DNA from: Candidatus Poribacteria bacterium
GTDB lineage: Bacteria; Poribacteria; WGA-4E; WGA-3G
Assembly: GCA_965242965.1 (NCBI GenBank)
Contig: OZ251518.1
Coordinates: 2,169,838 to 2,233,837, forward strand
Length of the DNA stretch: 64,000 nucleotides
Reading direction: 5' to 3'
Both the position numbers and the translations under genes were made by a program. Below are positions 26,966 through 53,976 of this stretch, piece by piece; the stretch's first letter is position 1, and every line of letters begins with the position of its first letter. Under the pieces are notes generated by a model. The model made no database searches, was not told where the DNA came from, and saw nothing but the letters and a program-made list of their open reading frames with translations.

Positions 26966-27967
26966 TTGAAAGAGATTGTTTTAACAGGCATCAAACCGAC
27001 AGGGCAGCCGCACCTCGGCAACTACCTCGGCATGCTGAAACCCGCGCTGGAACTCGCGGAAGACCCGGGTAAAGAGAGACTCGCACTCTACTTCATCGCC
27101 GATTACCACGCACTCACCACGGTAAAAAGCAAGAAAGAGTTGCAGGATTTGACAAACCAGGCCGCCGCGACCTGGCTGGCATTGGGACTTAACCCGGACG
27201 AGGCAATTCTCTATCGCCAATCGGATGTACCGGAGGTGTTTGAGTTAGCGTGGGTGTTGGCATGTTTCACGGCAAAGGGGTTGCTCAACCGCGCGCACGC
27301 CTATAAAGCGATAGTTGACGATAACCTCGCCGCCGGCCGTGAGGCGGACAAAGGCATCAACGCGGGCTTGTTCACGTATCCTGTTTTGATGGCGGCGGAT
27401 ATCCTGCTATACGGAACGCATATCGTCCCGGTCGGCTTGGATCAGCGGCAACACCTTGAAGTAACGCGCGATGTCGCCATCGCCTTCAATAAAAACTACG
27501 GGAACGTTTTGACGGTGCCGAAAGCCGTCATCCGGAAAGAGGTGATGACTATCCCCGGTCTTGACGGTAGGAAGATGAGCAAAAGTTACAACAACGTCAT
27601 TCCGCTGTTCGCGCCATCAACCCAGATTCGGAAGCAGGTCCGACGGATTGTAACGGATTCTAAGCGGCCGGAAGAACCGAAGGATCCGGAGGGATGCAAC
27701 GTCTTCGCTATCTATCGGCATTTTGCGGATGGGGATGCGGTTGAAGCGAAACGGCAGCTCTATCTGAACGGCGGCCTCGGCTACGGCGACATGAAGCAGG
27801 AGCTCTTCGAGTTGTTAGACGCGACCTTTTCCGCACAGCGCGATACGTATAACGCATTGATGGAAAATCGGGACGAGTTGGACACGGTGCTTCGGCACGG
27901 TGCTGAGAAAGCGCGGGACATTGCGGTGCCGATTTTGCGTAAGGTTCGGAAGGCGGTGGGGGTGTAG
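26966..27967 (+). CDS. trpS: tryptophan--tRNA ligase
   Basis: TGIKPTGQPHLGNYLG (HIGH-class motif region) and KMSKSYNNVIPLF (KMSKS). TTG start preceded by AGGAGA. Confidence 0.9.
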   Translation: MKEIVLTGIKPTGQPHLGNYLGMLKPALELAEDPGKERLALYFIADYHALTTVKSKKELQDLTNQAAATWLALGLNPDEAILYRQSDVPEVFELAWVLACFTAKGLLNRAHAYKAIVDDNLAAGREADKGINAGLFTYPVLMAADILLYGTHIVPVGLDQRQHLEVTRDVAIAFNKNYGNVLTVPKAVIRKEVMTIPGLDGRKMSKSYNNVIPLFAPSTQIRKQVRRIVTDSKRPEEPKDPEGCNVFAIYRHFADGDAVEAKRQLYLNGGLGYGDMKQELFELLDATFSAQRDTYNALMENRDELDTVLRHGAEKARDIAVPILRKVRKAVGV

Positions 27968-28494
27968 TCTCGAATTTTCCGGTGTAACGCATATTCCAAC
28001 GTAGGGCGAGGACCACGGGGACACATCGAGACCGGGAGGTCTCTCCTACATAACGCATATTCCAACGTAGGGCGAGGGCCCTCGGATGCCACACGCGCAT
28101 CCGAGCGGGTTTCCCTCGCCATGCGTTTGGTTGGCAGACCTCATCACCCTTGTAGTTCAGGATTGTCTGAAGCTCTGGCACATTTGCCAAGCGATCCTGA
28201 CCCGTTCGGGAGCGGGCGCTCCCGAACTACAGAGGTGGGCCCGATACGCGCCCCCTCGCTTTTCTATCGGTATTCGTCCTTCCCCTAAGGGGCGTAAATT
28301 TATGATACACCCTCATCTAATTTTGACCCGGGCGGGCTCAATACCCAGTAGGAGAGACCTCCCGGTCTCGATGCAATATCCCGGTAGGAGAGACCTCCCG
28401 GTCTCGATGAATCACACCCCATCGGGACAAGGATGTCCCTCCTACCCAAATAACACCAGAAGTAGGCGCGCCCTCCCAGTCTCGATGCCCACTC

Positions 28495-30316
28495 TCAAAT
28501 CGTTTTGAGTCTGCATTGCAATGCAAGGTTCGCCGCCAGCGTATCCGTTAACGCAACATCCCGGCAGACAAACACAGAATCCTTTGACAACCCTAGACGT
28601 TCTATATCCCTCGGCACAAGTTCAGCATCCAAACAGACGTGGAACATCTGCGACTTATCAGGCGCGACAATGCGAAAAACCGTATTCGTTGCAAGGCCTG
28701 CAACGCGCGCAATTGTGCTATCAAGCGGGTATCCCTCTTTAAGCGCAACTTCATAAAGGACATCCTCTTCGCGCCACCCTTCCCGAAGCGCATCAATGGC
28801 GTTTTCCAACTGCGCGATGTAAGTTTGCACATCCTCGGTGCGGACATCGTCTTCTGTCCGATAGTTGGACTCGGCAAGTTTGAAGACGCGGCAGCCGGCG
28901 TTTTCTCGCAAACACACGCGGCGAACCCGTTCTTTGCCAATCTCGGCAATCGTCTCAAATCCTGCCTTGCGCGCATCCGATTTTTCCGGGGTAGGTTCCG
29001 GCAGTTGCACCATGATAAATTGCCGCGCACCGGAATCTTCCCGATTGAGCTCCAACACTGCCTCTGCTGTCGTGCAGGAGCCCGCGAAGAAATCCAAAAC
29101 GATGGAATCTGCGTCAGTGCTGAACTGCAGGAGGTGTTTGATTAAACCCACCGGTTTCGGAAAATCAAAAATGAAAACATCGTCTCTCTCGAAAAGTTTA
29201 CGAAGTTGCGCCGTGCCGTGGCTAGTCTGCTCCATATCTGTCAGCAGACTTCGCATGACTCTCGCGGAAGAATTCAGATAGTGCTTGTATTCTACCTGCC
29301 ATTCGCCGTTGGCATTCTGCTTGAAAACGATTTTATTCTCCGCTTTCCAATGCAGAAAACGCGCCTCCGACCAGGCCCAGTATTTCACAATCTTTGAGCC
29401 ATCGGGACACGCAATCGCATACCGACGACTTTCACGCTGATGCCGGAGAGGTGCTTCCAGCCGAAAAGTTTTGTAGGGACCGAGTTGTTCATAATGCGCA
29501 TCTTTCCCCTGATATGCCGCTTGCTCTTTTTCGGTCAGCGGCCGCCTGAGCCTGCCTACTTCATCTCGGCTTTTGGCATACATGAGGATATACTCATGAT
29601 TCGTCGCGAGGTGCTTCATGTTATTCCCGCCGCCGCTATTTCGTTGCCAAATCAACTGTTGCATGAAATTCTCTTCCCCGAAAATTTCGTTCATCAGCAG
29701 GCGGAGGTTATGCCCCTCGCGGTCATCGATACTGACGAAGATGAGGCCATCATCCGTGAGTAACTGCCGCGCAAGGAAAAGGCGTGGATACATCATCGAC
29801 AACCACGCCGAGTGGTAACGGCCGCTACGCTCTGGATTGCTCGTCTGCAGATTGCCGGCGGCATCAAGCTGCCCTGACAATTGCAGGCAGGCATCCAACG
29901 GCTTCGCGTAGTTATCGGGATAGACAAAGTCGTTGCCGGTGTTGTAAGGCGGATCGATGTAAATCGCCTTCACGCGTCCGAAATAGGGTTTGTAGAGGAG
30001 TTTCAGCACCTCCAGGTTATCACCTTCAATGAAAAGGTTTGAAGTGCTGTCAAACTGAAGTGACTCCTCTCGGCATGGAATAAGGGTAGCCTCGGTAGGG
30101 ACGTTGAGCAGGCGGATGGATTCGCGCTTGCCTGCCCAATTGAAGTGATACCTATCCTTGGCGTTTACCCCCCCCTTCACAAATCTCTAGTATATTTGCA
30201 AGTTTCTCCATGTCCACTTCGCCTTCGGTGAGGCATTCGGGGAAAAGTTGCTTGAGTTGTCGGAGCCGCTCCTCGTTTAGGGCGGGTGTCGTTTTCGGGG
30301 TTTTATCGGTTTTCAT
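28495..30316 (-). pseudogene. mod: Type III restriction-modification Mod methyltransferase (EcoP15I Mod-like, N6-adenine) split by a frameshift at a G8 homopolymer; no res gene
   Basis: Main ORF 28495..30180 carries IYIDPPYNTGNDFVY (motif IV DPPY), DRYHFNWAGK and HSAWLSMMYPRL, collinear with EcoP15I Mod, plus a C-terminal FFAGSCTT (motif I). A 54-codon ORF starts at ATG 30316 (MKTDKTPKTTPALNEERLRQLKQLFPECLTEGEVDMEKLANILEI...) and matches the Mod N-terminus (QLAVLKANFPQCF...). It is out of frame with the main ORF across cccccccc (30168..30175). Seven or ten G would fuse the two frames. Confidence 0.75.
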
Positions 30317-30510
30317 TAGCATTTTCCTTCGGCAGGCGCGGTTCGTCCTGCGTAAGTCCTCTATGAACGGGCATTAGAAATTCCGCAACGTTCTTCCCCG
30401 TAGGAGAGACCTTCCGGGCTCGATGCATTCCGGTAGGAGAGACATCCTGGTCTCGATGTTCCCGCAGCGCGGGGGACAGGCCCCCGAGATCTCTGTCGTC
30501 TCAATGCGTT

Positions 30511-30687
30511 CTTAGGTCCTTTAGGACCTACATGTCTATAGAAAAACGTGTCGTCCCATTTTCAAGGACTTTTAGGTCCTTAATAAAAAACACGCGAGGC
30601 ATGTCAAAATCTATTAAGGACCTAAAGGACCTTAGAGCCTTTTGCGTTTCGGTTGCTATAGACATTAAGGTCCTACGGACCTGAAGA
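30511..30687. mobile_element. second copy of the family-E element, inverted relative to 13078..13249
   Basis: The reverse complement of this segment aligns base-for-base with 13078..13249 except for a few substitutions. Confidence 0.7.
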
Positions 30688-30880
30688 GAAGAAGAGACGT
30701 TTTTCCGTAGCACCGACGATGGCGAGGGACAGGCCCTCGCCCTACGATGAAGGGGGATTTCTGCCGCCGAGCCCCGGGAGGCGTGCCGCCCTATCGCATC
30801 GAGACCAGGTAGTCTCTCCTACCGGCAATAGCGCGGGGGCTGTCACCGCGACATTGAGCGATTTATGAAACACCCTCATA

Positions 30881-31150
30881 TTAGACCGTTACGGCAATGA
30901 GCGGCACATCGCGGACCGGCATCTGCGCGCCGAGTTCGGCCGGCATCTCTTCGCCATGTTCCAACAAACACTCAAAGAGCAGTTTAACAGCGTCTTCAAG
31001 GTTTTCTAACGCTTCTTTCTGCGTATATCCCCAACTTGCTGCACCGCGGTGCTCCAGCGAGGGAATATAGGCACGCCAGACGGCTTTCTCGTCGGGTTCG
31101 TCGGGCCATTTGTCCTTCTCTAGGACAACCTCAAACGTGTAGGTTTTCAT
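30881..31150 (-). CDS. HicB-like (UPF0150) protein
   Basis: MKTYTFEVVLEKDKW...AYIPSLEHRGAASWGYTQKEALENLEDAVKLLFECL fits the UPF0150/HicB N-domain pattern. Confidence 0.55.
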   Translation of the reverse strand: MKTYTFEVVLEKDKWPDEPDEKAVWRAYIPSLEHRGAASWGYTQKEALENLEDAVKLLFECLLEHGEEMPAELGAQMPVRDVPLIAVTV

Positions 31151-31395
31151 GATGTCCCTCCATTATTTAACAAAAATTTTTCAACGTTCCTTCCGATAGT
31201 TGGCGGTGGAAGTGGTTTATTGTCGCTATGGAAAATCTCTACCCACTCGTTAACGATTTCGCAGAGTTCGCGATAGACTTCAACCTCATCGTCACCATGT
31301 GCGCAAGGTCCGATGATGCCGGGGCAATACCCGATGAAACAGTCATCTTCGTCAGACCATTCCACGATTTTGATGTAGTTCGCGCTTTCAGTCAC
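31147..31395 (-). CDS. HicB-like (UPF0150) protein
   Basis: YIKIVEWSDEDDCFIGYCPGIIGPCAHGDDEVEVYRELCEIVNEWVE fits the HicB N-domain pattern. It overlaps the downstream HicB-like gene by 4 bp. Confidence 0.55.
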   Translation of the reverse strand: MTESANYIKIVEWSDEDDCFIGYCPGIIGPCAHGDDEVEVYRELCEIVNEWVEIFHSDNKPLPPPTIGRNVEKFLLNNGGTS

Positions 31396-32488: not shown

Positions 32489-34996
32489 TCACAAAACGCT
32501 CGTTGGAGCGATGTCTATCACCAATTCAACGGCGTTGGATTTAATGGCCGGCGGCGGTTCGGCAGTGAGTTGCTGAATGCGTAGCGAGATGGCTTCAGCC
32601 GTTTCACTGCGGAGTAAGAAGTGCCACCGAAATTTCCCTTCAATTTTGGAGAGCGGTGCGGGGGCGGGCCCCAGAATTTCCACCAAATCTCCATCAGTTT
32701 GCGAGTTCTGGAGTTGATTTACCACGGTGTGCGCCGCGTCAATCACCGATTTTTCGTCTTTGCCGCGGAGGAGAAGCCGCGCTATGTGCGAAAAAGGTGG
32801 GTAGCGCAACGCACCGCGCGCCGCTACCTCCTGTTCATAGAAACCGATATAGTCGTGCTTCTGTGCCGCTGTGATGCAGTAATGCGCCGGCATATAGGTT
32901 TGGACGATAACCTCACCCGGTATTTCGGCGCGCCCAGAACGTCCAGCGACTTGCGTCAGCAGGCTGAACGTCTGTTCGCTCGCGCGGAAATCCGGGAGAT
33001 TCAAGGCAGTATCCGCCGCGATAACCCCGACGAGGGTGACGTTCGGAAAATCCAACCCTTTCGCCACCATCTGTGTGCCGATGAGGATGTCGATTTCCTG
33101 CTGCTGAAACGCCGCTAATATCTGCTGATGCGCGTTCTTCCGCGCCGTGGAATCGGCATCAAACCTTTTGACGTTCGCGGCAGGGAACGCCTTGCGCACC
33201 TCTTGCTCAATCGCCTCTGTCCCCATACCAAAATAGCGGATGGCCGGGCTACTACACTGCGGACATGTCGGATGCGTATCGCGCCGATGCCCGCAGTGAT
33301 GACAGACGAGTTTCTTCGTCTCAAAGTGAAACGTCAAAGATATGGAACAGTTGTTGCACCGCTCAACGTAGCCGCAGGTTCGGCAGAAAACGTAAGTTGA
33401 ATGTCCGCGCCGGTTCAGGAATAAGATAATTTGCTCCCGCTTCACGAGGCGTTGTTCAATAGCGTTTCGGAGAAGCGCGGAGAAGATGGTGCGGTTTCCA
33501 CCTTTCAACTCGGCGCGCATATCAACGATATGCACCTCTGGCATCTCTCTATCCAACACCCGCGTCGGAAGACTGAGGAGTTGATACGTGCCGTTGCGAG
33601 CGCGGTAGAAACTTTCCAACGAAGGTGTCGCGCTGCCGAGTAGGAGCGCGCAGTTGGCGAGTTCACTCCGTTTCTGGGCAACTTCCCGGGCGTGGTAACG
33701 CGGGGCCTTGTCCGATTTATAGGAGTCCGAGTGCTCTTCGTCGATAATTATCAGCCCCAATTCTCTGACCGGGGCGAACACGGCGGACCGCGGGCCGATG
33801 ACGATGGTGGCTTCTCCTTTTTGGATGCGATGCCAACTGTCATAACGTTCGCCGTCGCTAAGACGGCTGTGTAGCACCGCGACGCGCTCGCCAAACCGGC
33901 CGATAAATCGTGAGGCAGTCTGCGGTGTCAGTGAAATCTCTGGCACTAAGACGATGACAGACTTCCCGCCCTCCAAAATCTGCGCGATTGCCTGCATGTA
34001 GACTTCGGTTTTGCCGCTCCCGGTTACGCCGTGAAGGAGCAAAATCCGTCCAATATCCATCGGCGCGCCAGCACTGTGCGAAGACAATCGCGCCAGCGCG
34101 TTCTGAACCTCGGCAAACGCCGCGGCTTGTGCCGGATTGAGCTGATAAGGTTTCGTCGCCGCAACCGGTTGGCAGCTCAATGGGTTGCGCAACACCCGCG
34201 CCTGCGTAATCTTGATGAAGCCGCGTCTCTCAAGCGTGCGGAGCAGGGAGAGACTCGTGCCCGCCTGCTCGGCGAGCTCTGCCGTGGTTATCGGCGCGTC
34301 TTCGTTAAGTAGGATGCGCAGGATTTCCGCGTGTTTCGCGGCGGCAGGACGACGGCGGTTTCCATCGGCACCGCGCGCTTCCGCTGTGAGGCGCGCAATC
34401 TCCGCCGCAATCTCGTTTGGTGTTAACGCCAAGGATGCCACCGTCGCAGTCTGCGCAGAGGCTTTCGGTTTGTGAGTGACGTAAACATCAACAACGCCTT
34501 TTTCACGAAGCGCGGAGATTTTCGGACGGAGATTCGTGTAACTGACACCGACGCGCCGCGCAAGTTGATTCGGTGTGAGCTCCCCTTCTGCCTCCAACAG
34601 CGCGACAATCTCCTTTTGCACGCCTCTGACACTCGGTTTATCTCCTGATTTGAGTTGCACTCGCTGCCGTTTCTCGCTTCGCACGGCGGCAGGCACCGCA
34701 CAAAAGAGCGCGTTCCCCCAGGGAGAGACGTAATAGTCCGCCATCCACTTTGTCAACGCGAGCAACTCAGCAGAGAACGTTGGATATTTATCGAGACAGT
34801 CAGATATACTTTTGATTTTGTTGGGAGTCAGAGCCGTCACGTCTATCCGTTCAACGACAACGCCTTCCTGCGTGCTTCGTCGAAACGGCGCGAGCACACG
34901 GACACCCGGTTGCACAACGGCATCCAGATGCGGCGGCACGGCGTATGTGAACAGCTGATCGATCGCGAGTGGAAAGGCGATGTTGGCGTAGCGCAT
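32489..34996 (-). CDS. priA: primosomal protein N' (replication restart helicase PriA), long form with extra winged-helix inserts
   Basis: Walker A GVTGSGKTEVY, DEEH box IIIDEEHSDSYK, and a Cys4 zinc ribbon (CRTCGYVERCNNC...CHHCGH..THPTCPQC). It is 835 aa versus ~730 typical; the extra HTH-like segments are LARRVGVSYTNL and TTAELAEQAGTSLSLLRTLERRG. Confidence 0.9.
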   Translation of the reverse strand: MRYANIAFPLAIDQLFTYAVPPHLDAVVQPGVRVLAPFRRSTQEGVVVERIDVTALTPNKIKSISDCLDKYPTFSAELLALTKWMADYYVSPWGNALFCAVPAAVRSEKRQRVQLKSGDKPSVRGVQKEIVALLEAEGELTPNQLARRVGVSYTNLRPKISALREKGVVDVYVTHKPKASAQTATVASLALTPNEIAAEIARLTAEARGADGNRRRPAAAKHAEILRILLNEDAPITTAELAEQAGTSLSLLRTLERRGFIKITQARVLRNPLSCQPVAATKPYQLNPAQAAAFAEVQNALARLSSHSAGAPMDIGRILLLHGVTGSGKTEVYMQAIAQILEGGKSVIVLVPEISLTPQTASRFIGRFGERVAVLHSRLSDGERYDSWHRIQKGEATIVIGPRSAVFAPVRELGLIIIDEEHSDSYKSDKAPRYHAREVAQKRSELANCALLLGSATPSLESFYRARNGTYQLLSLPTRVLDREMPEVHIVDMRAELKGGNRTIFSALLRNAIEQRLVKREQIILFLNRRGHSTYVFCRTCGYVERCNNCSISLTFHFETKKLVCHHCGHRRDTHPTCPQCSSPAIRYFGMGTEAIEQEVRKAFPAANVKRFDADSTARKNAHQQILAAFQQQEIDILIGTQMVAKGLDFPNVTLVGVIAADTALNLPDFRASEQTFSLLTQVAGRSGRAEIPGEVIVQTYMPAHYCITAAQKHDYIGFYEQEVAARGALRYPPFSHIARLLLRGKDEKSVIDAAHTVVNQLQNSQTDGDLVEILGPAPAPLSKIEGKFRWHFLLRSETAEAISLRIQQLTAEPPPAIKSNAVELVIDIAPTSVL

Positions 34997-35079: not shown

Positions 35080-36609
35080 TTAACGCCGCAGCGTGAGCTC
35101 TGTCTGCTCATCTTTAAAGTGCCGTTCCGATTTGTGCCGCGATTCTACGCGCCACGGCAACCGGATCCTTTTGTTGAGAGACTCCGGATCCGCAAAGTAT
35201 CCATCATCAATCTGCCAGAATTGGAGGCACGGATAAGATACGCCGTTATGCTGGAATGTCCCCATGCTTTCCTGTATCGCCTTCATGCCGCGGGTGATCG
35301 GCTCGACGGTGATAAAAATGCCGACCTGGGCTTTCTGTTCACGGATAGCGTGGCAGAATGCGCGCAGCGCAGATATACTGGGTTTACCTGATTTGACTTC
35401 GGCGATAATGCGCGTATTCCGATCTCGCTGGGTGCGAGGGACCCGCACTTTCACGGCACCGGTGCTATCAAATCCACCATCGCCAACATTTGCTGTCGGT
35501 TCGAGCCCAATGCGCGTCACTGCCCAATTCGCAAAATCGTGATACTTTTCCCGGTCGCGAACGAGCAGCATCACTTCCCGCATATTCGTCGGATAGCCCG
35601 CAATCTCATTATCAACGGAAGGCTCCAGTCCATGCCTATCGCGTAGCCGTTCCTGCATCGGATCCAGCGCGACGAGCGTCACATCAATGCCTATCCACTG
35701 CCGATTTAGCGTTTCTGCCGCGTCAAGTGTCGTGCCGCAGCCGCAAAACGGATCAAGCACAATGTCGCCGGGGTTTGATGACGCTCGGATTATCCGTTCA
35801 TAGAGGGCACGCGGCTTCTGCGTCGGATAGCCGAGACGCTCCTTGGCAGTCGCCCCAATCTGATTCATCTCACTCCCGCGCAGATAGGTGAAGACATCGT
35901 CCATCGGGGTTCCCTCATCCCAATAGAAACGCTTCCATTCGCCATGCTTATCCCTGGTCCGATTCCTGCGATATTCTCGGCCATCCTCGTCTTGATACTT
36001 GAACATGTGTCTCGTCTTTTCAGCATACGGCATCCGTGGCTGATTGAACACGAAGGAGGGCCCTTTGACGTAGCGCAGGATAATGTCGTGCTTACGTTTG
36101 AAGTCCTGACGCGGCGCGTTGCCCGCCGAATAGTGCCAAATAATCTCATTCCTGAAGTTGCCGACACCGAACATGGCATCCATCAAACCTTTCAGGTAAT
36201 GGCTCGCCGTCGGATCGCAGTGCAAATACATGCTTCCCTTCAGGTGGAGCACGCGGTGGAGTTCAAGGATGCGGGGCCCCATGAAAGTGAGATACGCGCG
36301 CATCGCACTCGGCGCACCACTTGTTGCCTTCTGGAGCACGAAGTCATAGCCGGTGAGCGCGTTGTTGAGCGCGGCGTAACTTTCGGATGTCCGGGCGAGT
36401 TTCTCAATTTCATGACGTGCGTCCTGCGCTGCATCGTCCCATGTCCACGTATCCACGAACGCTGTCCGCTGTGATTGCGATGCTTTCAAAAACGTGTTGT
36501 AGTTGCGGCCGCTGTTGAAAGGCGGATCGGTGCAGACGAGATGGACGCATCCTGTCTCCAATTCTCGCAAGATTTCAAGGTTATCCCCGAAGTAAATTTT
36601 ACGCAGCAT
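35080..36609 (-). CDS. beta-class amino DNA methyltransferase (motif IV DPPF then motif I FCGCGTT) fused to a C-terminal Mrr-like PD-(D/E)xK nuclease domain
   Basis: N-terminal LVCTDPPFNSGRNY, then PGDIVLDPFCGCGTTLDAA. The C-terminal ~190 aa carries GDGGFDSTG...IIAEVKSGK (Mrr-cat-like D...EVK). The start is set at the ATG at 36609 (MLRKIYFGDNLEIL); the track ORF extends upstream into repeats. Confidence 0.75.
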   Translation of the reverse strand: MLRKIYFGDNLEILRELETGCVHLVCTDPPFNSGRNYNTFLKASQSQRTAFVDTWTWDDAAQDARHEIEKLARTSESYAALNNALTGYDFVLQKATSGAPSAMRAYLTFMGPRILELHRVLHLKGSMYLHCDPTASHYLKGLMDAMFGVGNFRNEIIWHYSAGNAPRQDFKRKHDIILRYVKGPSFVFNQPRMPYAEKTRHMFKYQDEDGREYRRNRTRDKHGEWKRFYWDEGTPMDDVFTYLRGSEMNQIGATAKERLGYPTQKPRALYERIIRASSNPGDIVLDPFCGCGTTLDAAETLNRQWIGIDVTLVALDPMQERLRDRHGLEPSVDNEIAGYPTNMREVMLLVRDREKYHDFANWAVTRIGLEPTANVGDGGFDSTGAVKVRVPRTQRDRNTRIIAEVKSGKPSISALRAFCHAIREQKAQVGIFITVEPITRGMKAIQESMGTFQHNGVSYPCLQFWQIDDGYFADPESLNKRIRLPWRVESRHKSERHFKDEQTELTLRR

Positions 36610-37002
36610 GATGCCGATTATCCTTTTATGTTTTCCTAGTGAACGCTGGCGGGGGGCAGGCCCCCGCGCTACGATAAAAAACGGCACTTCATCGTAGGGT
36701 TTGGGCCCTCGGATGCCACACGCGCATCCGAGCGGGTTCCCCTCGCCAGCGTCCACGCACCAGGCCCTGTAGGTCAGGATCGCCTGATCCTGACCTGTTT
36801 GTGATCAGGCGATCACAAACTACAGAGGGGAAACACACATCGGGACGATGGAGATCGCGGGCGAAACCCGCTCGGATGCGCGTATGGCATCCGAGGGCCC
36901 CCGCGCTACGGTAATCGAGAAATCGCGGGGGACAGGCCCCCGCGCTACGGGAACATCAAGCCCCGAGGTCTCTCCTACCGGGATGTATCAAGACCTGCGC
37001 GC

Positions 37003-37992
37003 CTATTGACACTTCCCTTTTTGCTCGTTTTCGTAATCGACAGACGGTTCAAGTCCATGTCTCTCGCGGAGCCGCTTCTGCACCAATTCTAACGCGAGGA
37101 GCGTCACATCGATGCCTATCCACTGCCGACTTAGCGTTTCCGCTGCGTCAAGTGTCGTGCCGCAGCCGCAAAACGGATCGAGCACGATGTCACCGGGGTT
37201 CGATGAAACTCGGATTATCCGTTCGTATAATGTCCGCGGCTTTTGTGTCGGATATCCCAGCCACTCCTTCGTCGATTTATAGGCGGGTGCAACATCTGTC
37301 CACCAATCAAAAGGCACTTTACCTTTCACCAATTCTGCCGCCACTGCGTCATCGAAAACCTTCGGATTTCCTCTGCGCCATCCTTCTTGCACCGTGCGCT
37401 TATCGATTCGCGCGTGTGGGATGAGAATATCCTCTGGATTGAAAGTGTTGTCCTCGCCTTTAGCATAAAACAAGAGGATGTCGTGTTTGCGAGGAAAATG
37501 CCGCTTTGGCCGTCCCGGCGAACCATATCCCCAAATAATCTGATTCCTGAAGTTCGCCACGCCGAACACGGCATCCATCAACCCTTTTAGATAGTGACTC
37601 GCCGTTGCGTCACAGTGGAGATACATGCTACCTGCTGGATGCAGGACACGATGACACTCCACGATACGTGGCCCCATGAAGGCGAGATAGGCACGCATGG
37701 CACTCGGCGCGCCGTTCGTCGCTTGCTGTAACACAAAGTCATAGCCGATGAGCGCGTTGTTGAGCGCGGCGTAACTTGGAGAAGTCGGTGCGCGGCTGTC
37801 AATTTCACGCCGTGCGTCTTGCGCTGCATCGTCCCATGTCCACGTGTCCACAAACGCTGTTTTCTGTGACTGCGAGTCGGTGTAGTTGCGGCCGCTGTTG
37901 AACGGCGGATCGGCGCAGACGAGCTGAACGCACCCTGTCTCCAATTCTCGTAAAATTCCAAGGTTATCCCCGAAGTAAATTTTACGCAGCAT
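37003..37992 (-). CDS. beta-class amino DNA methyltransferase, paralog of 35080..36609 without the nuclease domain
   Basis: MLRKIYFGDNLGILRELETGCVQLVCADPPFNSGRNY and PGDIVLDPFCGCGTTLDAAETL. It is ~80-90% identical to its neighbour in the first ~150 and last ~75 aa, but the central ~110 aa differ completely. The start is set at the ATG at 37992. Confidence 0.8.
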   Translation of the reverse strand: MLRKIYFGDNLGILRELETGCVQLVCADPPFNSGRNYTDSQSQKTAFVDTWTWDDAAQDARREIDSRAPTSPSYAALNNALIGYDFVLQQATNGAPSAMRAYLAFMGPRIVECHRVLHPAGSMYLHCDATASHYLKGLMDAVFGVANFRNQIIWGYGSPGRPKRHFPRKHDILLFYAKGEDNTFNPEDILIPHARIDKRTVQEGWRRGNPKVFDDAVAAELVKGKVPFDWWTDVAPAYKSTKEWLGYPTQKPRTLYERIIRVSSNPGDIVLDPFCGCGTTLDAAETLSRQWIGIDVTLLALELVQKRLRERHGLEPSVDYENEQKGKCQ

Positions 37993-38035
37993 GATGCCGG
38001 GTATCCTTTGCAAAAGCGTGATGAGAAAAACGCTG

Positions 38036-47577: not shown

Positions 47578-50500
47578 TTACTCCCGCTGCTTCAATTCAC
47601 CAAACGTCGTCAACATCCGATTTGCCGCAGAGACAGGACCGCGCAACATACGCAACGCCAAGGTCTCTCGCTTACCACCCAATGAGACCTCTTCGATCTG
47701 GTAGTAATACTCGACTCCCGGCTTCGCAGATGTATCGGTGAACGTGTAAGTTTGACGCTCGCCTGTCGTGCCGGCACCGGCGATTAAGACAGGATTCAGC
47801 AACGTGAAACCACTATCGCGTTTCAAGCTGCGACGCAGATTAAATCCAGCGTTGTCTACCTCAGATTCGGTTGTCCATGTGACGACAACCGGACCGGCAT
47901 CGGTACGCGTCACGGTGAAACTTGATAATTCCACCGGCAAGGCACCGCCTTGACGATACCCTGGTGTCCCGATGTCATCGGCATGGCCATAGTGCAGCGA
48001 TTCAACTTTAAATTGCTGGAAATACGCCGCAAAAGCCCACCCGGAACGTCTTGTCCCCTTCTCCGCCACGCCTTTCACATAGCGACGGACAAGCGAACTC
48101 CGCGCATCTTCCAAACCGCGCACCGGCACCGCCCACGACGGCGCATCATCGGTACGACGATTGCCATCGGTGTTACCGACCTCGTCTACCAAATTCCCAT
48201 TTCTATCGGTGAGTTTCAGATAGAACGCATCGGTGCTCAAGAACGTATCCCGCGCGGTTTTAATGCGCAGATTCTTCTCGTGCAAGTCAAGCAGGTTGTA
48301 AACCCTATCTGCAGGGAAAACACCCGCCGATGAAGCGCGCGCAGCCCCTGCCACTATCAACAGCGTCTGATTCGGCTGAATCACCTTCTCCTGCAATGTC
48401 AACGTGACAATCGGGCGGCCGACGAGGTCTTCGGAATTTTCATTCTGAATCTCCAACCTCCAGCGATTCAGATTCAGTGCCTCCGTTTTAGACGCGTTGT
48501 AGAGCTCTATCCACTGCGGCAGCGTGCCACCACCCGAATCCAACATGAGTTCGCTAATGGTGACTGCACCCTTCGGCGTAGATGCCTCCGTTTTCACCGC
48601 GCCATTCGGATAGCCCGGCGTGCCAGATGTCGCCGGAGACTGCGTCACCTTCCTGTCATAGCCGATACCGGTGAAGGCGGCTTCCGCCCACGCATCTTTA
48701 TGATACCCGACGATATCCGCTTTCGCGCGCTGCCAGACCTTGCCGGAACTGAGCGCATCCTCGGTATCTCCACTGGGTGCCTCCAGCACTTGCAAGGGCC
48801 AGACATGCGTATCATACAGCCCTTCCTGCTCGCGGACAAACGCATCGGTATCACTGCCGCCGCCCCCGGCGACATCCACGAACGCTTCGTCCAAACCGAG
48901 TTTGTCTTTCGCATTGCGGAGAATGAGGAGGAATTTCCCATCATCGGGCAGCGAGAGACCTGCGTCCACTAAAGAGGCATGCGATAACCCCTTATTTTCC
49001 CCGCCTGCGAGTAGTGTTTTGTCCGGTTCACTGTTCGTTATCAGCAACAGCCCGTTCGCCGGCACACTCACATCGGGAAACATAATGAGCGATGTATCCT
49101 CTTTTTTGCCATCGGCGACAACAGAGAGCTCCCAGTCTTTGAGAGAGACATCCGAAACGTCGACATTGCGGAGCTCTATCCAGTCGTTCGCATCCCCACT
49201 GCCATTGCCGAGCTCGTTGAAAACGATGGGCTCGCGAGGCACATCAGAGGCTGGCGACTTCGGATCTGACGTTTCCGGCAGGTAAATCACCGACAACACC
49301 GGTGTATCCGAGAGATCGAACGTCGGAGGTTCCTGCCGCGTTGTTGGAAACGTCAGCGTGTCTTCTCGCGTTGTCTTTGGCGGCAGCCTGTCCACCGGTG
49401 CTCCCGGCTCTATAGCCGGCGTGGCCTGACCTAACAATTCGTTGCCATCGCCATCGACTACCCGTGTCCCCTGCGGAATCAATATGCCGCTGGTATCCAG
49501 TGACACCGATGTCGCAAAATCACCCGCTTGGATAGGATACGCAAACGGCACGATCGTTGAACCCCCGCGCTCCGAACCTCTTTGCCACGTCGCGTGCCGC
49601 GCATTCGCCAAAACGCGCTCGCCTAAATAGATGACGACATACGGCGGATTGTCTCCTTCGTAAGTGACACCCTTCTCGTCAAACGACACCTCCACAATCA
49701 ACTCATCTTCTGCGGTGTAAGCCTCTGCCTCCGACTCGACAATCTTTGGCGTTTCAGTGACACGCGGCGGCACCGTGTCAACTGTCACAACTAATGCCTC
49801 CGTGGCGGCGGCGTTCGAGAGATATTCTGGGACTGCTACCGTATCATCAACTGCCGCTGCCTCCTTGACTGCCCCTGCTTCAAGCGTGATGTGCACCTTG
49901 CCATCAAAATTGAAGGCAGGCGTGATAACAGCACTGACGGTAGCACTCGGCGATGTCGGTTGAGAGACAGCCACATCCCAATTCAACGCCGTTCCATCCG
50001 CCTGCGTGATGCTGATTTTCCCCGTGTCAAACGGCGATACGACATCGCGGCCAAAAGTAAATTCAACCGCAAAATCCTCAATCACCAAGCCTGTTTCGCC
50101 TCCCCGACGCGCTACCTGCACCGTCGGTGGTGTCACCACGGGAACGGTGAACGTATTCGATGCCAAGTTGCCGTTCCTCGCCAGATCTTGCGCGACACCC
50201 TCTGGCAGCTGAACGGTGACCTCGCCCCTAAAATTGAGCGGCGGCGTGAACGTGGCACGGTGGACCTCACTCTGGAACGTATGGTGAAGAGCATCATCGT
50301 CAATCCCTTTGTAATTAAAGCCGAGCAACTTCGTTTCAACGCTCCATCCATCGCCGAGAGCCTTGGCAATTGCATCGGTATCAATGCTTTCTTCTGGTAT
50401 GTGCTCCGGCACCCCTCGGGCACTGGTATTATTCCAAAAGTGCATATCCACATCAAAGGGACCCGTTACCGTGCCGGTTTCACCGGCAGCACGTCCAATC

Positions 50501-52068
50501 TCCACATTCGCCCGGATGGTATCTATCATGTGGCTAAACCCGCCGCTCCAATTCTCAGGAGGTTGGCGATTACGGAACTTGGTCGTAACGGCATGCCCGT
50601 CAAAGGCATTGCCACCAGCGTCGGTGATTTCATACACTATATTCCACTGCTGGATCATCGAAGGGACAAACTGCCGAGTATCCAACATGCCATCCGATTG
50701 GAGACGGTTCAAACTTGCAAAGGGATGGAAAATCTCGATGCCACCGGTGCCGTAAGCCCAATCTCCCTCCTTCACCACGTACTCAAACGTTAACTTGTTG
50801 TCCGCATCACTCCTCACTGCCATCCGCGTGCCACTGCTCCCGGGCACCACACCGAAAGAGACCGGTTGCGGTGTGCCGACGAGCGTTGCATATTCGGCAG
50901 CATCATTCCCGGAGTGAAGTTTAATCTTCAATTTCGTTTCCGGATTGGCATAGACAGTTTTTGAAAACTTTATCTGAAACCGAATCGTCTCGCCCACGCC
51001 GTAAATACCTAGTGGACGCAGCTGTAATCCCGCCGGGGAAGCGAGGCCGCCCTCAGTAGTGATACATCCCGCAGTTACTAGCAGTTGCTCCAGCTGCTGC
51101 TGACCCTGAGACGTTCTTAAATCAGGCCGGCCCGCATTGTGCCATTCGTAGAAACAGGTCTCATAAAACGCGGCAAAGCGGCTATCCTCATCTGTCCCCT
51201 GTGGCGTGCTCGTAATCGTATACGGGCTGTTTCTGTCCTGGACCCAACGCGATCCTTCCGGCAAGTTGAAGGCATCGTTCAGGGCTCCGTTGATTCTATA
51301 AGGCTCGTCCCAACCGCTAAACGGGGGATCGAAAGTTGGCCGGGACAGCGTCGGCCGGCGACCATCTATCCTGGGGTAGTCAAGTGTGCCTGTAAACGTC
51401 AGCGTGTCTGAATTGACTGCAGTACCGCCCGCGCGATTAAGCTGCCCTCCCGTCAACGGCGTAGTATTGAACCAGCCGCCATCAAGGTCCAAGTCACCGG
51501 TTCTCACCTTATAGTTGTAGATGACGGTATACTCGGTGAACTCGGTGCGGCCTTGTAAATGATCACCGTTAAAGTAGTGGTTGTGGTATTGCGTACCGGA
51601 AACAGGACCTCCAGCATCCCAAGATATATCCAGGTGCGTCCGAAACCAAAAGGTATTCACAGGTCCGACACGAATTGCAATCGCGAGGATATCCCCCGCT
51701 ATAAGGGGAGGAGTCGCCGACGTTATAGGAATACCGCCGACAGGGGTGCCGGTGCTATCAAGAGGAACGTAGCCGTTAATGACACCTTGGCTCGCCTTCC
51801 AGTAGTTAGTGCCCGGCCCTCCGTAACCGCCATAGTTACTGGGCTTAAAATCTGCTGGCGGCCAAACACCGGAAACCGTTTGGCGTTGTCCAGTATTGTC
51901 CGTCGCCTTCGCCTTAAGCGCGCTCTCCGGAATTAGGTAAAACTCAATCCCTTTGATTTCGGGTGCCTGTGCCTCGGCTACCTCCGGGACAGCGAGCCCG
52001 AAGCCAACCCCCGCGAGCATCAAGAAGATGAAAAATCTCGCTTGCAAAAAAAGCCATTTCTTCTGCAT
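47578..52068 (-). CDS. giant secreted protein (1496 aa) with signal peptide, two lamin-tail domains and a C-terminal beta-sandwich sorting-type domain
   Basis: N-terminal hydrophobic signal. LTD-like segments PIVFNELGNGSGDANDWIELRN and VTISELMLDSGGGTLPQWIELYN. C-terminus VELSSFTVTRTDAGPVVVTWTTESEVDNAGFNLRR...YYYQIEEVSLGG. RBS GGAGG precedes the ATG at 52068. Confidence 0.8.
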   Translation of the reverse strand: MQKKWLFLQARFFIFLMLAGVGFGLAVPEVAEAQAPEIKGIEFYLIPESALKAKATDNTGQRQTVSGVWPPADFKPSNYGGYGGPGTNYWKASQGVINGYVPLDSTGTPVGGIPITSATPPLIAGDILAIAIRVGPVNTFWFRTHLDISWDAGGPVSGTQYHNHYFNGDHLQGRTEFTEYTVIYNYKVRTGDLDLDGGWFNTTPLTGGQLNRAGGTAVNSDTLTFTGTLDYPRIDGRRPTLSRPTFDPPFSGWDEPYRINGALNDAFNLPEGSRWVQDRNSPYTITSTPQGTDEDSRFAAFYETCFYEWHNAGRPDLRTSQGQQQLEQLLVTAGCITTEGGLASPAGLQLRPLGIYGVGETIRFQIKFSKTVYANPETKLKIKLHSGNDAAEYATLVGTPQPVSFGVVPGSSGTRMAVRSDADNKLTFEYVVKEGDWAYGTGGIEIFHPFASLNRLQSDGMLDTRQFVPSMIQQWNIVYEITDAGGNAFDGHAVTTKFRNRQPPENWSGGFSHMIDTIRANVEIGRAAGETGTVTGPFDVDMHFWNNTSARGVPEHIPEESIDTDAIAKALGDGWSVETKLLGFNYKGIDDDALHHTFQSEVHRATFTPPLNFRGEVTVQLPEGVAQDLARNGNLASNTFTVPVVTPPTVQVARRGGETGLVIEDFAVEFTFGRDVVSPFDTGKISITQADGTALNWDVAVSQPTSPSATVSAVITPAFNFDGKVHITLEAGAVKEAAAVDDTVAVPEYLSNAAATEALVVTVDTVPPRVTETPKIVESEAEAYTAEDELIVEVSFDEKGVTYEGDNPPYVVIYLGERVLANARHATWQRGSERGGSTIVPFAYPIQAGDFATSVSLDTSGILIPQGTRVVDGDGNELLGQATPAIEPGAPVDRLPPKTTREDTLTFPTTRQEPPTFDLSDTPVLSVIYLPETSDPKSPASDVPREPIVFNELGNGSGDANDWIELRNVDVSDVSLKDWELSVVADGKKEDTSLIMFPDVSVPANGLLLITNSEPDKTLLAGGENKGLSHASLVDAGLSLPDDGKFLLILRNAKDKLGLDEAFVDVAGGGGSDTDAFVREQEGLYDTHVWPLQVLEAPSGDTEDALSSGKVWQRAKADIVGYHKDAWAEAAFTGIGYDRKVTQSPATSGTPGYPNGAVKTEASTPKGAVTISELMLDSGGGTLPQWIELYNASKTEALNLNRWRLEIQNENSEDLVGRPIVTLTLQEKVIQPNQTLLIVAGAARASSAGVFPADRVYNLLDLHEKNLRIKTARDTFLSTDAFYLKLTDRNGNLVDEVGNTDGNRRTDDAPSWAVPVRGLEDARSSLVRRYVKGVAEKGTRRSGWAFAAYFQQFKVESLHYGHADDIGTPGYRQGGALPVELSSFTVTRTDAGPVVVTWTTESEVDNAGFNLRRSLKRDSGFTLLNPVLIAGAGTTGERQTYTFTDTSAKPGVEYYYQIEEVSLGGKRETLALRMLRGPVSAANRMLTTFGELKQRE

Positions 52069-52745
52069 TGAAAATTCCTCCTTAAAAATAGAATTAAATT
52101 GATAGGGGTAGTTGCCACTTTTGCGGCGGCTCTCCCCATTGTTCTTAAGGTATCAGGGCATCTTTCTGAGTGGTGCTTGGAAAGATGCGTGTGTTCTGAA
52201 AGGCTAGCGATGAACGTGTGTGGGCGCGGTGGAACGCGAAAAGCCCCTCGGGGCTGTCCCCAAGAGGTAAGACCTCCTGGGCGCGAGGGGAGCCGAGGGG
52301 CAAAGCGAGAGTCGCGCGTGAGCCGCGCGCGTGCAAAACACGGGTAGGCGCGCTTTAGCGGCGCGCAAGTTTTCATCGTATGGCCATTCAGAGATAGGAT
52401 ATTTTGCCCCGGGGATGGGGCGGAAGTGTCCCCCCGGTTCGCCTTCCCGTCGAGAGCCGTAGTGGTTAACGGCTGTATATGAAGGGGGGGGGTCTTTCGG
52501 TCTGTGCGGTGTCAACGGAGCGCGTGAACGTGCGTGCGGCATGCGGCCGCGCGTTCAGGGCTGTCTGCAGTTGGATTTCGCCATGTATAGCAAAGCGTTT
52601 CGTCACTTGCATAGGATTCTCCATTGCGTTTCGTTGAAAACTCGCACCAAATCAACAATCAGGACGCAAATGCCATCATTTTCCATCGGCAGGCGCAACT
52701 TCAAATCGCGCCTGCAGGCGTATCAATTCTGCGTCCATTGTATAT

Positions 52746-52774
52746 AGTATACCACATTTTCAAACGTTTGTCAA
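52746..52774 (-). promoter_or_regulatory. near-consensus sigma70 promoter ~680 nt upstream of the giant gene
   Basis: Minus strand reads TTGACA (52774..52769), a 17-nt spacer, then TATACT (52751..52746) with an upstream TG. It lies in an AT-rich island at the far end of the 52069..52850 noncoding region. Confidence 0.5.
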
Positions 52775-52849
52775 ATTTTTTTGTAAAAAAAGTGATATTT
52801 TTTGGATATTCGCGAAAAAATCCTATAAATCCTATAATTTTGTCTATGG

Positions 52850-53760
52850 CGTATCGGGACAAGGATGTCCCTCCTACCCAAACGCATATCGGGACAAGGA
52901 TGTCCCTCCTACCCAAACCCGTAGGAGAGACCTCCCGGTCTCGATGCAACTTTCGGTAGGAGACCGTAGTTCGGGAGCGCCTGATCCCGAACGGCGCATG
53001 GCGAGGAGAACCCCTTCCGGGCCCGTAGCGCGGGGGTCTGTCCCCCGCGATCGCCCGCGTGCCCCAGAGACTGTAGTTCGGGAGCACCTGCTCCCGAACG
53101 GGTCAAGAGCAGGCACTCTTGACCTACAGAGGTGATGCGCGCACGCGTGCCCGAGGGCACGGCGAGGGACAGGCCCTCGCCCTACGGTAAACGGCACGTT
53201 TTTTCACCGTAGCGCGGGGGCCTGTCCCCCGCGATCGCTCGATCTGCGCGAAAAACGCACGCAGACTAAGGGCGTTTTCCCGACCGAGGCATGGCGAGGG
53301 ACAGGCCCTCGCCCTACGGTATGCGTGGCGTTTTTTTCACCGTAGGGCGGGGGCCTGTCCCCCGCGATCGTTCGCGTGCCCCAGAGACCGTAGTTCGGGA
53401 GCACCTGCTCCCGAACGGGTCAAGAGCAGGCGCTCTTGCCCTACAGAGGGGATGCGCGCACGCGGGCCCGACGGCACGGCGAGGGACAGGCCCTCGCCCT
53501 ACGGTGAAAGGAGACGGCCTTGCATACCGTAGCGCGGGGGCCCTCGCCTGCCACACGCGCAGGCGAGCGGGTTTCCCCCGCGATTGCCAGACCCGCGCGA
53601 AAAACGCACGCCAGCCAAAGCCGTTTTCCCGACCGTTGCATGGCGAGGGACAGGCCCTCGCCCTACGGTAAGCGGCACGTTTTTTCACCGTAGCGCGGGG
53701 GCCTGCCCCCCCGCGGTGGATACCGCATCCTCAGATGCTATAATCTTGTAAATCCTATAA
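52850..53760. repeat. ~0.9-kb intergenic block of family A, B, C and D repeat units
   Basis: Multiple ACCGTAGCGCGGGGGCCTGTCCCCCGCGATCG and GGCGAGGGACAGGCCCTCGCCCTACGGT units, two family-D dumbbells (53060..53140, 53385..53450), family C at 52855..52915 and family F at 53735..53790. Confidence 0.8.
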
Positions 53761-53838
53761 TCTTGCAAATCCTGATTCAGACAATTGGGCGCACGGAGGA
53801 CAGGCGGAGATACAAATCCATCTTTCCCGACAATACGC

Positions 53839-53867
53839 TTGACTTAAAATACGTTTTTTTATACAAT
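53839..53867 (+). promoter_or_regulatory. sigma70-type promoter of the LamG gene
   Basis: TTGACT (53839..53844), 17-nt spacer, TACAAT (53862..53867). AAGGAGG RBS before the ATG at 53977. Confidence 0.5.
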
Positions 53868-53976
53868 AGACTCAAATTCGCCGAACACCGTAGAGCGAGG
53901 ATCTCAAAGTCACTAGTTTCAGAGGGTTTCCCTCGCAAAGTTTCCGCCATTTGATAGCAAAAAGGAGGAACTAAAC

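Follow-up and report, generated by a model that had tools for sequence, protein, structure and literature searches.

A probable poly-G phase switch in a solitary Type III DNA methyltransferase gene of Candidatus Poribacteria

A 64,000-nucleotide stretch of a Candidatus Poribacteria genome (here called the window; positions 2,169,838 to 2,233,837 of contig OZ251518.1, assembly GCA_965242965.1) carries a Type III mod gene that is interrupted at one point only, a run of eight G residues near its 5' end. Comparison of the orthologous locus between strains indicates, with good confidence, that this poly-G tract acts as a hypermutable ON/OFF switch. Slipped-strand mispairing in the tract would turn a solitary (res-less) N6-adenine methyltransferase on and off at random. 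At the consensus length of G8, translation from the ATG at 30316 would end after 54 codons and leave the gene OFF, and the loss of one G or the gain of two would restore the full enzyme of 606 or 607 residues. That the solitary enzyme also governs a phasevarion is a proposal for which the chances are close to even, if slightly on the lower side. A first-pass annotation of the window had described an orphan Type III mod gene as a candidate for slipped-strand phase variation, and this description is borne out by polymorphism of the tract, by the scatter of frame states among alleles and by purifying selection.

The elements of the gene, given by position in the window, are as follows.

28495..30316, minus strand: complete Type III mod gene, EcoP15I-like, encoding a beta-class N6-adenine methyltransferase, with a single out-of-frame point.
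30168..30175, minus strand: poly-G tract, G8 on the coding strand (C8 on the plus strand), an OFF length.
30152..30316, minus strand: 5' segment of mod, 54 codons, closed by a premature TAG in the G8 frame; it reads MKTDKTPKTTPALNEERLRQLKQLFPECLTEGEVDMEKLANILEICEGGGKRQG up to the stop.
28495..30167, minus strand: 3' segment of mod downstream of the tract, with the methyltransferase core, the target-recognition domain (TRD) and the C-terminal region; intact.
29944..29955, minus strand: catalytic motif IV (DPPY), matching IDPPYNTG of EcoP15I in the alignment.
29116..29715, minus strand: central variable region, the TRD, residues ~201-400, exchanged as a block between alleles.
29068..29091, minus strand: S-adenosylmethionine-binding motif I (FFAGSCTT), with Cys at the place of the last Gly of the textbook FxGxG.

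The 54-codon open reading frame (ORF) starts on the minus strand at the ATG at 30316, or alternatively at the ATG at 30322, and ends at the TAG at 30152..30154. The main ORF (28495..30180) lies in a different frame and is listed from a GTG, giving 561 residues; the two ORFs overlap at the G8 tract. The main ORF contains DRYHFNWAGK, DPPYNTG, HSAWLSMMYPRL and FFAGSCTT, and its product is identical to database protein P0130, which is encoded on a contig of 5,661,971 bp. Both ORFs and the motifs are thus where the first-pass annotation had placed them, and its claim that seven or ten G residues would cure the frame break at the C8 of 30168..30175 was reproduced in silico: editing the tract to G7 or G10 gave a single ORF from the ATG at 30316, of 606 and 607 residues, respectively, and no uninterrupted ORF from this ATG was obtained with the G8 and G9 versions. 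The tract falls at about codon 48 and is a mononucleotide repeat inside the ORF, with a unit length not divisible by three.

The repaired protein aligns with the EcoP15I Mod subunit (E=5.8e-72 with structure 4zcf_A) from residue 12 of both proteins, and the alignment crosses the frameshift site, with the 5' segment lying against EcoP15I Mod residues 12-50. Because the alignment runs across the break from residue 12, the short 5' ORF is the true N terminus of Mod, its first ~47 codons being genuine Mod sequence, and the gene has a single lesion. The collinearity of both parts with an EcoP15I-type Mod, which had been noticed at the outset, is borne out by this alignment. Further matches were obtained with a second structure (6k0w_B, E=5.3e-58), with the PADLOC profile MTase_III (PDLC03634, E=4.5e-177, residues 4-600 against a profile of 621 positions) and with the Pfam family N6_N4_Mtase (E=5.3e-37). 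The order of DPPY, central TRD and motif I in the window protein is the pattern of Type III Mod proteins. The Cys of motif I (FFAGSC) was considered as an inactivating change and rejected: across the Mod family, including members outside Poribacteria, 59 sequences have GSC, 36 have GSG and 21 have GSA, making GSC the commonest form, in other phyla too.

The G8 run taken alone is not above chance, with three overlapping matches at two sites against 2.31 expected from shuffles of the window (55% G+C), and the case therefore rests on comparison between genomes. The orthologous locus was defined by synteny (priA, a 317-aa gene, a HicB-like pair, mod and trpS), and tract lengths were compared between assembly consensus sequences only, with the following results.

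Window: G8, OFF.
L082: G8, OFF.
L081: G9, OFF.
L167: G9, OFF.
L163: G10, ON.
L166: G10, ON.
L164: G11 (an adjacent GAA→GAG change plus G10), ON.

The comparison of tract length in related genomes that the first-pass annotation had suggested thus yields G8 to G11 at orthologous loci, with both in-frame and out-of-frame states. The tract flanks are identical in L082, L167, L163 and L166, which together show three lengths (G8, G9 and G10) on one background. L081 and L164 come from the same sample, each on a circular contig, with labels of 228x and 203x, respectively. When the set was widened to 19 distinct orthologous alleles, taken as clusters at 90% identity around the window protein, the called proteins were of 560/561 residues (eight alleles), 504 residues (eight) and 607 residues (three); checked on DNA, these lengths correspond to G8, G9 and G10. 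The three frame states are interleaved on a neighbour-joining tree of the 19 alleles, which requires at least seven changes of state, and the sister of the window allele is an ON allele.

An error of sequencing or assembly in the homopolymer would account for the frame break in the window more simply, with a true tract in frame (G7 or G10) and a constitutive gene. Homopolymer length is the commonest type of error in long-read consensus, and the tract is the sole lesion in the gene. Against this, out-of-frame lengths occur in at least six independent assemblies with different naming styles, and these include scaffold-type metagenome assemblies (L082, L167, L003 and L004) as well as circular contigs whose names give coverages of 228x and 203x (L081 and L164). 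One project yields both states (G10 in L163 and L166, G8 in L082 and G9 in L167), and in ~13 kb of synteny between the window and four assemblies, no indel other than the tract falls inside any of the eight genes compared. Miscalling of most copies would itself imply mixed read lengths, and a miscall confined to the window genome would leave the conclusion on the locus unchanged. Because separate assemblies repeatedly give lengths that break the frame, this explanation, which had been raised in the first-pass annotation, is judged very improbable.

Purifying selection acts on the coding sequence both upstream and downstream of the tract. The ratio of nonsynonymous to synonymous divergence (dN/dS) is 0.10-0.14 at dS of 0.17-0.56 (window, L081, L082 and L001), and 0.09-0.12 for the 3' segment against orthologues. 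All eight copies examined on DNA become full length by one repair at the tract, and no second stop or frameshift was found in these eight copies or in the 19 orthologous alleles. Over the 45 codons upstream of the tract, the corresponding polymorphism ratio (pN/pS) in the eight copies is 0.30 in the annotated frame versus 1.22 and 1.86 in the other frames. These N-terminal 45 codons are constrained in frame, and therefore the full-length protein, and not just its downstream part, is the selected product. Divergence is concentrated in the centre of the protein: the window Mod and database protein P0003 are 90-100% identical over residues 1-200 and 401-606 and 42-70% identical over residues 201-400, a pattern which indicates that the TRD is exchanged as a block and is mosaic between alleles.

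These measures bear directly on a second explanation, in which the gene is a decaying pseudogene, an orphan mod that lost its res, became frameshifted and is on its way out. Such a history would agree with the absence of res, with MITE-like repeats (resembling miniature inverted-repeat transposable elements) on both flanks and with the out-of-frame state of the majority of alleles. It does not fit a dN/dS of 0.10-0.14 over dS values up to 0.56 with no further stop or frameshift, nor an N-terminal segment that is still constrained in frame ahead of the break. In-frame alleles are moreover interspersed with out-of-frame ones on the tree, and the G run is unbroken in paralogues of ~70% identity. 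The possibility of decay, likewise entertained at first, is largely refuted by the low dN/dS and by the close relatives, which are free of additional lesions, and we consider it extremely unlikely.

Purifying selection on a gene that is out of frame in most alleles could also point to recoding: slippage during transcription, or frameshifting by the ribosome, at the G run would let out-of-frame templates yield a little full-length Mod, and every cell would express the gene weakly. Frameshifted genes rescued by slippage at homopolymers are known in insect endosymbionts. Documented transcriptional slippage occurs mainly on A or T runs and not on G runs. The correction that would be needed also differs among the orthologues (-1 nt for G8, +1 nt for G9 and none for G10), whereas programmed sites normally hold one fixed offset, and in-frame alleles exist. 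Programmed ribosomal frameshifting was rejected as a candidate on the ground that offsets of -1, +1 and 0 are all present among orthologues. Recoding is thus quite unlikely as the explanation, and it could supplement slippage at the DNA level instead of replacing it.

The G8 frame might alternatively give a functional protein of its own, a Mod of 560/561 residues without the first ~46, such that the tract toggles between a long protein, a short protein and none. Gene callers did pick starts at the edge of the tract (P0130, 561 aa; P0002, 560 aa); the GTG at 30178..30180 opens the downstream frame, and in L082-type alleles GAT followed by G provides an ATG fused to the tract. A sigma-70-like sequence, TGGACA-16-TATACT (10/12), lies shortly before the GTG at 30216..30189 on the minus strand. 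This match, however, sits in constrained coding sequence, and the scan for promoters and terminators around mod returned matches at chance level only (3 promoter-like matches vs 2.3 expected). No Shine-Dalgarno-like sequence was seen ahead of the GTG, and the G9 frame is without such a start, gene callers beginning G9 genes at Met-103 only (504 aa). Conservation of the N-terminal segment as coding sequence, together with its alignment to EcoP15I Mod, argues that the long form is selected. A switch between isoforms therefore has a very low probability.

The tract is not confined to the orthologous locus. The best genomic relatives are all Poribacteria metagenome-assembled genomes. The tract recurs at the same position in further mod copies from Poribacteria, paralogues with 69-90% identity to the window protein. 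The copies at the remaining loci, with the presence or absence of res, are as follows.

L001: G9, res present.
L003: G9, without res.
L004: G9, without res.
L165: G17, without res; syntenic partner of L004.
L006: G10, without res.
L002, first tandem copy: G9, in frame; the locus has res.
L002, second copy: no tract, intact; the locus has res.
L005: no tract, intact; res present.

L004 and L165 are 97.5% identical, and the eight gap positions of their alignment are the 8-nt difference between G9 and G17. The G run is pure even in paralogues that are only ~70% identical. ON alleles in the database have between two and six Gly residues at the tract site, and the tract therefore encodes a length-tolerant Gly linker that joins the N-terminal segment to the methyltransferase core. 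Of 164 mod copies scanned, 8 have a run of at least seven G residues at this site; all 8 are from Poribacteria, and the ~150 homologues of other phyla have no such run. A scan of Joint Genome Institute (JGI) metagenomes returned homologues of at most 53% identity, from other phyla and with no Poribacteria among them; these lack the G tract and were used as an outgroup. The window genome itself has at least three split mod paralogues (P0130; P0021; and P0196 with P0200).

The gene downstream of mod in L001 encodes a complete Type III Res (E=4.5e-238 with PADLOC REase_III, and Pfam domains ResIII and RE_endonuc), and the Mod family is thus composed of both complete restriction-modification (R-M) systems and solitary mods. 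The res gene is absent from four of the six tract-bearing loci and present with both tract-less copies, a sample too small to test, in which there is a trend for presence of the tract to be coupled to loss of res, as has been described for H. influenzae (PMC1976455). At L002 (L002:8087..14503, OY282383), two tandem mods are followed by one res, the first copy with an in-frame G9 and the second tract-less. It is possible that this arrangement lets a single Res work with either of two specificities, of which one can be switched.

At the locus in the window, the gene order along the transcription of mod is priA (32489..34996), the 317-aa gene, a small HicB-like/UPF0150-like pair (31147..31395 and 30881..31150), mod and trpS (26966..27967), the last being the next gene after mod and on the opposite strand. 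No res ORF lies between mod and trpS, and a tblastn search with three Poribacteria Res proteins found no res remnant in the whole 64-kb window. Neither res nor a remnant of it is present at the orthologous loci L081, L082, L163, L164, L166 and L167 or in the window. With no adjacent res to form a mod-res operon, the locus in the window encodes a Mod-family protein and not a complete Type III R-M system. The spacer in which complete systems carry res is occupied by repeats with a 26-nt core, GTAGGAGAGACCTCCCGGTCTCGATG, of which the window has 22 copies versus 0 expected, three of them on each side of mod.

28024..28409, no strand assigned: MITE-like repeats in the mod-trpS spacer, with cores at 28024..28049, 28348..28373 and 28384..28409.
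30400..30822, no strand assigned: MITE-like repeats upstream of mod, with cores at 30400..30425, 30433..30458 and 30797..30822; these vary between strains.

The mod-trpS spacer and others vary in length from strain to strain as repeat units are gained or lost. Both observations made at the outset, that no res follows mod and that MITEs fill the downstream space, hold on the tblastn search and the count of repeat cores. Elsewhere in the window, the 26-nt core is dispersed over intergenic spacers, often in pairs or triplets (for example, 2175, 10597, 20280, 28348, 38829 and 60269), and it looks like a Poribacteria-specific MITE or REP-like element. One copy of the core lies between mod and res in L001. 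At L167:158..352, a HicA toxin gene precedes the HicB-like pair (82 aa and 89 aa).

Since no cognate Res is linked to mod, an epigenetic role is the natural reading. Switching would occur over short times within one population, a specific motif would be methylated throughout the genome by the ON enzyme, and the benefit would be epigenetic heterogeneity (a phasevarion) and not restriction. The first-pass annotation had seen in the gene a stand-alone regulator of epigenetic state and not an R-M system; the orphan status of the gene is shown, and regulation by it is a supposition.

Several observations weigh against a switch of this kind or against its epigenetic role. OFF alleles are in excess (16 of 19 orthologous alleles, with the remaining 3 ON, and all three split paralogues of the window genome), leaving ON below the one-third expected at random, and this excess could mean that the gene is usually dispensable; 3 of 19 is not significantly different from one third. 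The G8 of the window is under the threshold of at least nine bases applied to mononucleotide tracts in a survey of REBASE (PMC5909438); the same survey notes phase variation at G7-G8 tracts of C. jejuni and N. meningitidis, and switching rates of G7-G9 tracts in other bacteria are ~1e-3 to 1e-2 (PMC5909438). Length differences between strains attest to hypermutability over evolutionary time and not necessarily to rapid reversible switching. A Res encoded elsewhere in the genome, by a paralogous system, could pair with the protein in trans and make it part of an R-M system after all. Finally, Poribacteria genomes are large (5-6 Mb), an atypical setting for contingency loci.

The mechanism and the gene class are well known. 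Type III mod genes that are phase-varied by a G[n] tract include modH, modJ and modL of H. pylori and modU of Campylobacter upsaliensis (PMC5909438). The window gene resembles modH and modU in being a Type III mod in which a G tract inside the ORF sets the frame and differs in length between strains, and also in that there are several mod paralogues per genome and that the alleles differ in the central TRD. It differs from them in its source, being from uncultured sponge symbionts with genomes of 5-6 Mb and not from small-genome pathogens, and in that its switching is predicted from sequence comparison. The window Mod belongs to an EcoP15I-like branch with homologues from Chloroflexota, Nitrospirota and similar environmental lineages. 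In Haemophilus, Neisseria and Helicobacter, too, mod alleles are defined by block exchange of the TRD (PMC1976455, PMC5909438).

A phase-variable mod together with a dead res is regarded as a dedicated phasevarion (PMC5909438, PMC1976455). The modA genes of H. influenzae and Neisseria (PMC1976455) share with the Poribacteria locus the combination of a phase-variable mod and a lost restriction function, as well as tract-less relatives that retain an intact res (in Poribacteria, the second copy of L002 and L005). In modA, however, the repeat is a tetranucleotide (AGCC/AGTC) in place of a mononucleotide G run, and res is present but mutated, whereas at the Poribacteria orthologous loci it is gone without a remnant. 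The EcoP15I Mod (4zcf) is collinear with the window protein over almost the full length, with the same motif order and the same N-terminal segment. It does not undergo phase variation and acts together with Res in restriction-modification, unlike the window mod, which has no linked res, bears its G tract in the linker that follows the N-terminal segment and ends its motif I in Cys. No paper linking Poribacteria or sponge symbionts to phase-variable methyltransferases was found in the literature searched. What is new here is the phylum and its lifestyle, that of an uncultured, large-genome symbiont of sponges, along with a mod family of several copies that mostly lack res and a range of tract lengths from G8 to G17.

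Further methyltransferase genes and G runs are present in the window. Beyond priA, a gene at 35080..36756 (minus strand) encodes a 558-aa N6_N4_Mtase protein fused to an NA-iREase1 (inactive restriction endonuclease-like) domain, and a 336-aa paralogue, similar over much of its length and without the C-terminal NA-iREase1, is encoded at 37003..38013 (minus strand). Counting mod, three adenine/cytosine-N methyltransferase genes thus lie within 10 kb. Inside the listed 558-aa methyltransferase gene, comparison with L081 shows two close 2-nt indels of opposite sign at ~36004..36016, which would be a short compensated frameshift or a local misalignment. Apart from the tract in mod, the window has just two long G/C runs, G9 at 52484..52492 and C7 at 53706..53712, both in a repeat-rich intergenic stretch (~52100..53950). 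The G9 run lies ~420 bp upstream of the start of a gene for a 1496-aa secreted-type protein (47578..52068, minus strand); it was considered as the site of a second interrupted gene and rejected, being intergenic in a repeat-rich spacer.

To our knowledge, phase-variable Type III methyltransferases have been studied almost exclusively in human and animal pathogens. Poribacteria are a characteristic uncultured phylum of sponge symbionts, and the case made here for them is backed by comparison between genomes. The REBASE survey raises the question of why phase-variable Type III methyltransferases occur in environmental bacteria (PMC5909438). Annotation pipelines call truncated proteins of 500-580 residues and fragments of 50-55 residues in place of the complete gene, which keeps the mod family hidden. 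Sample ERZ26050812 contains two co-resident circular genomes that have the same specificity allele, ON in L164 on contig ctg28421 and OFF in L081 on contig ctg28420, and would constitute a natural experiment for the methylated motif if its reads, which the contig naming alone suggests to be PacBio, kept their kinetics.

More tentatively, each genome may keep three or four Mod paralogues that are switched by poly-G tracts, mostly lack res and shuffle their TRDs, which would give up to 8-16 methylome states per symbiont population in a sponge, a form of combinatorial epigenetic bet-hedging through multiple phasevarions; we hold this to be conceivable but on the doubtful side. Phage pressure or the environment of the host might tune such a system. 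If the combinatorial role of these Mod proteins is real, phasevarions would reach well beyond host-adapted pathogens.

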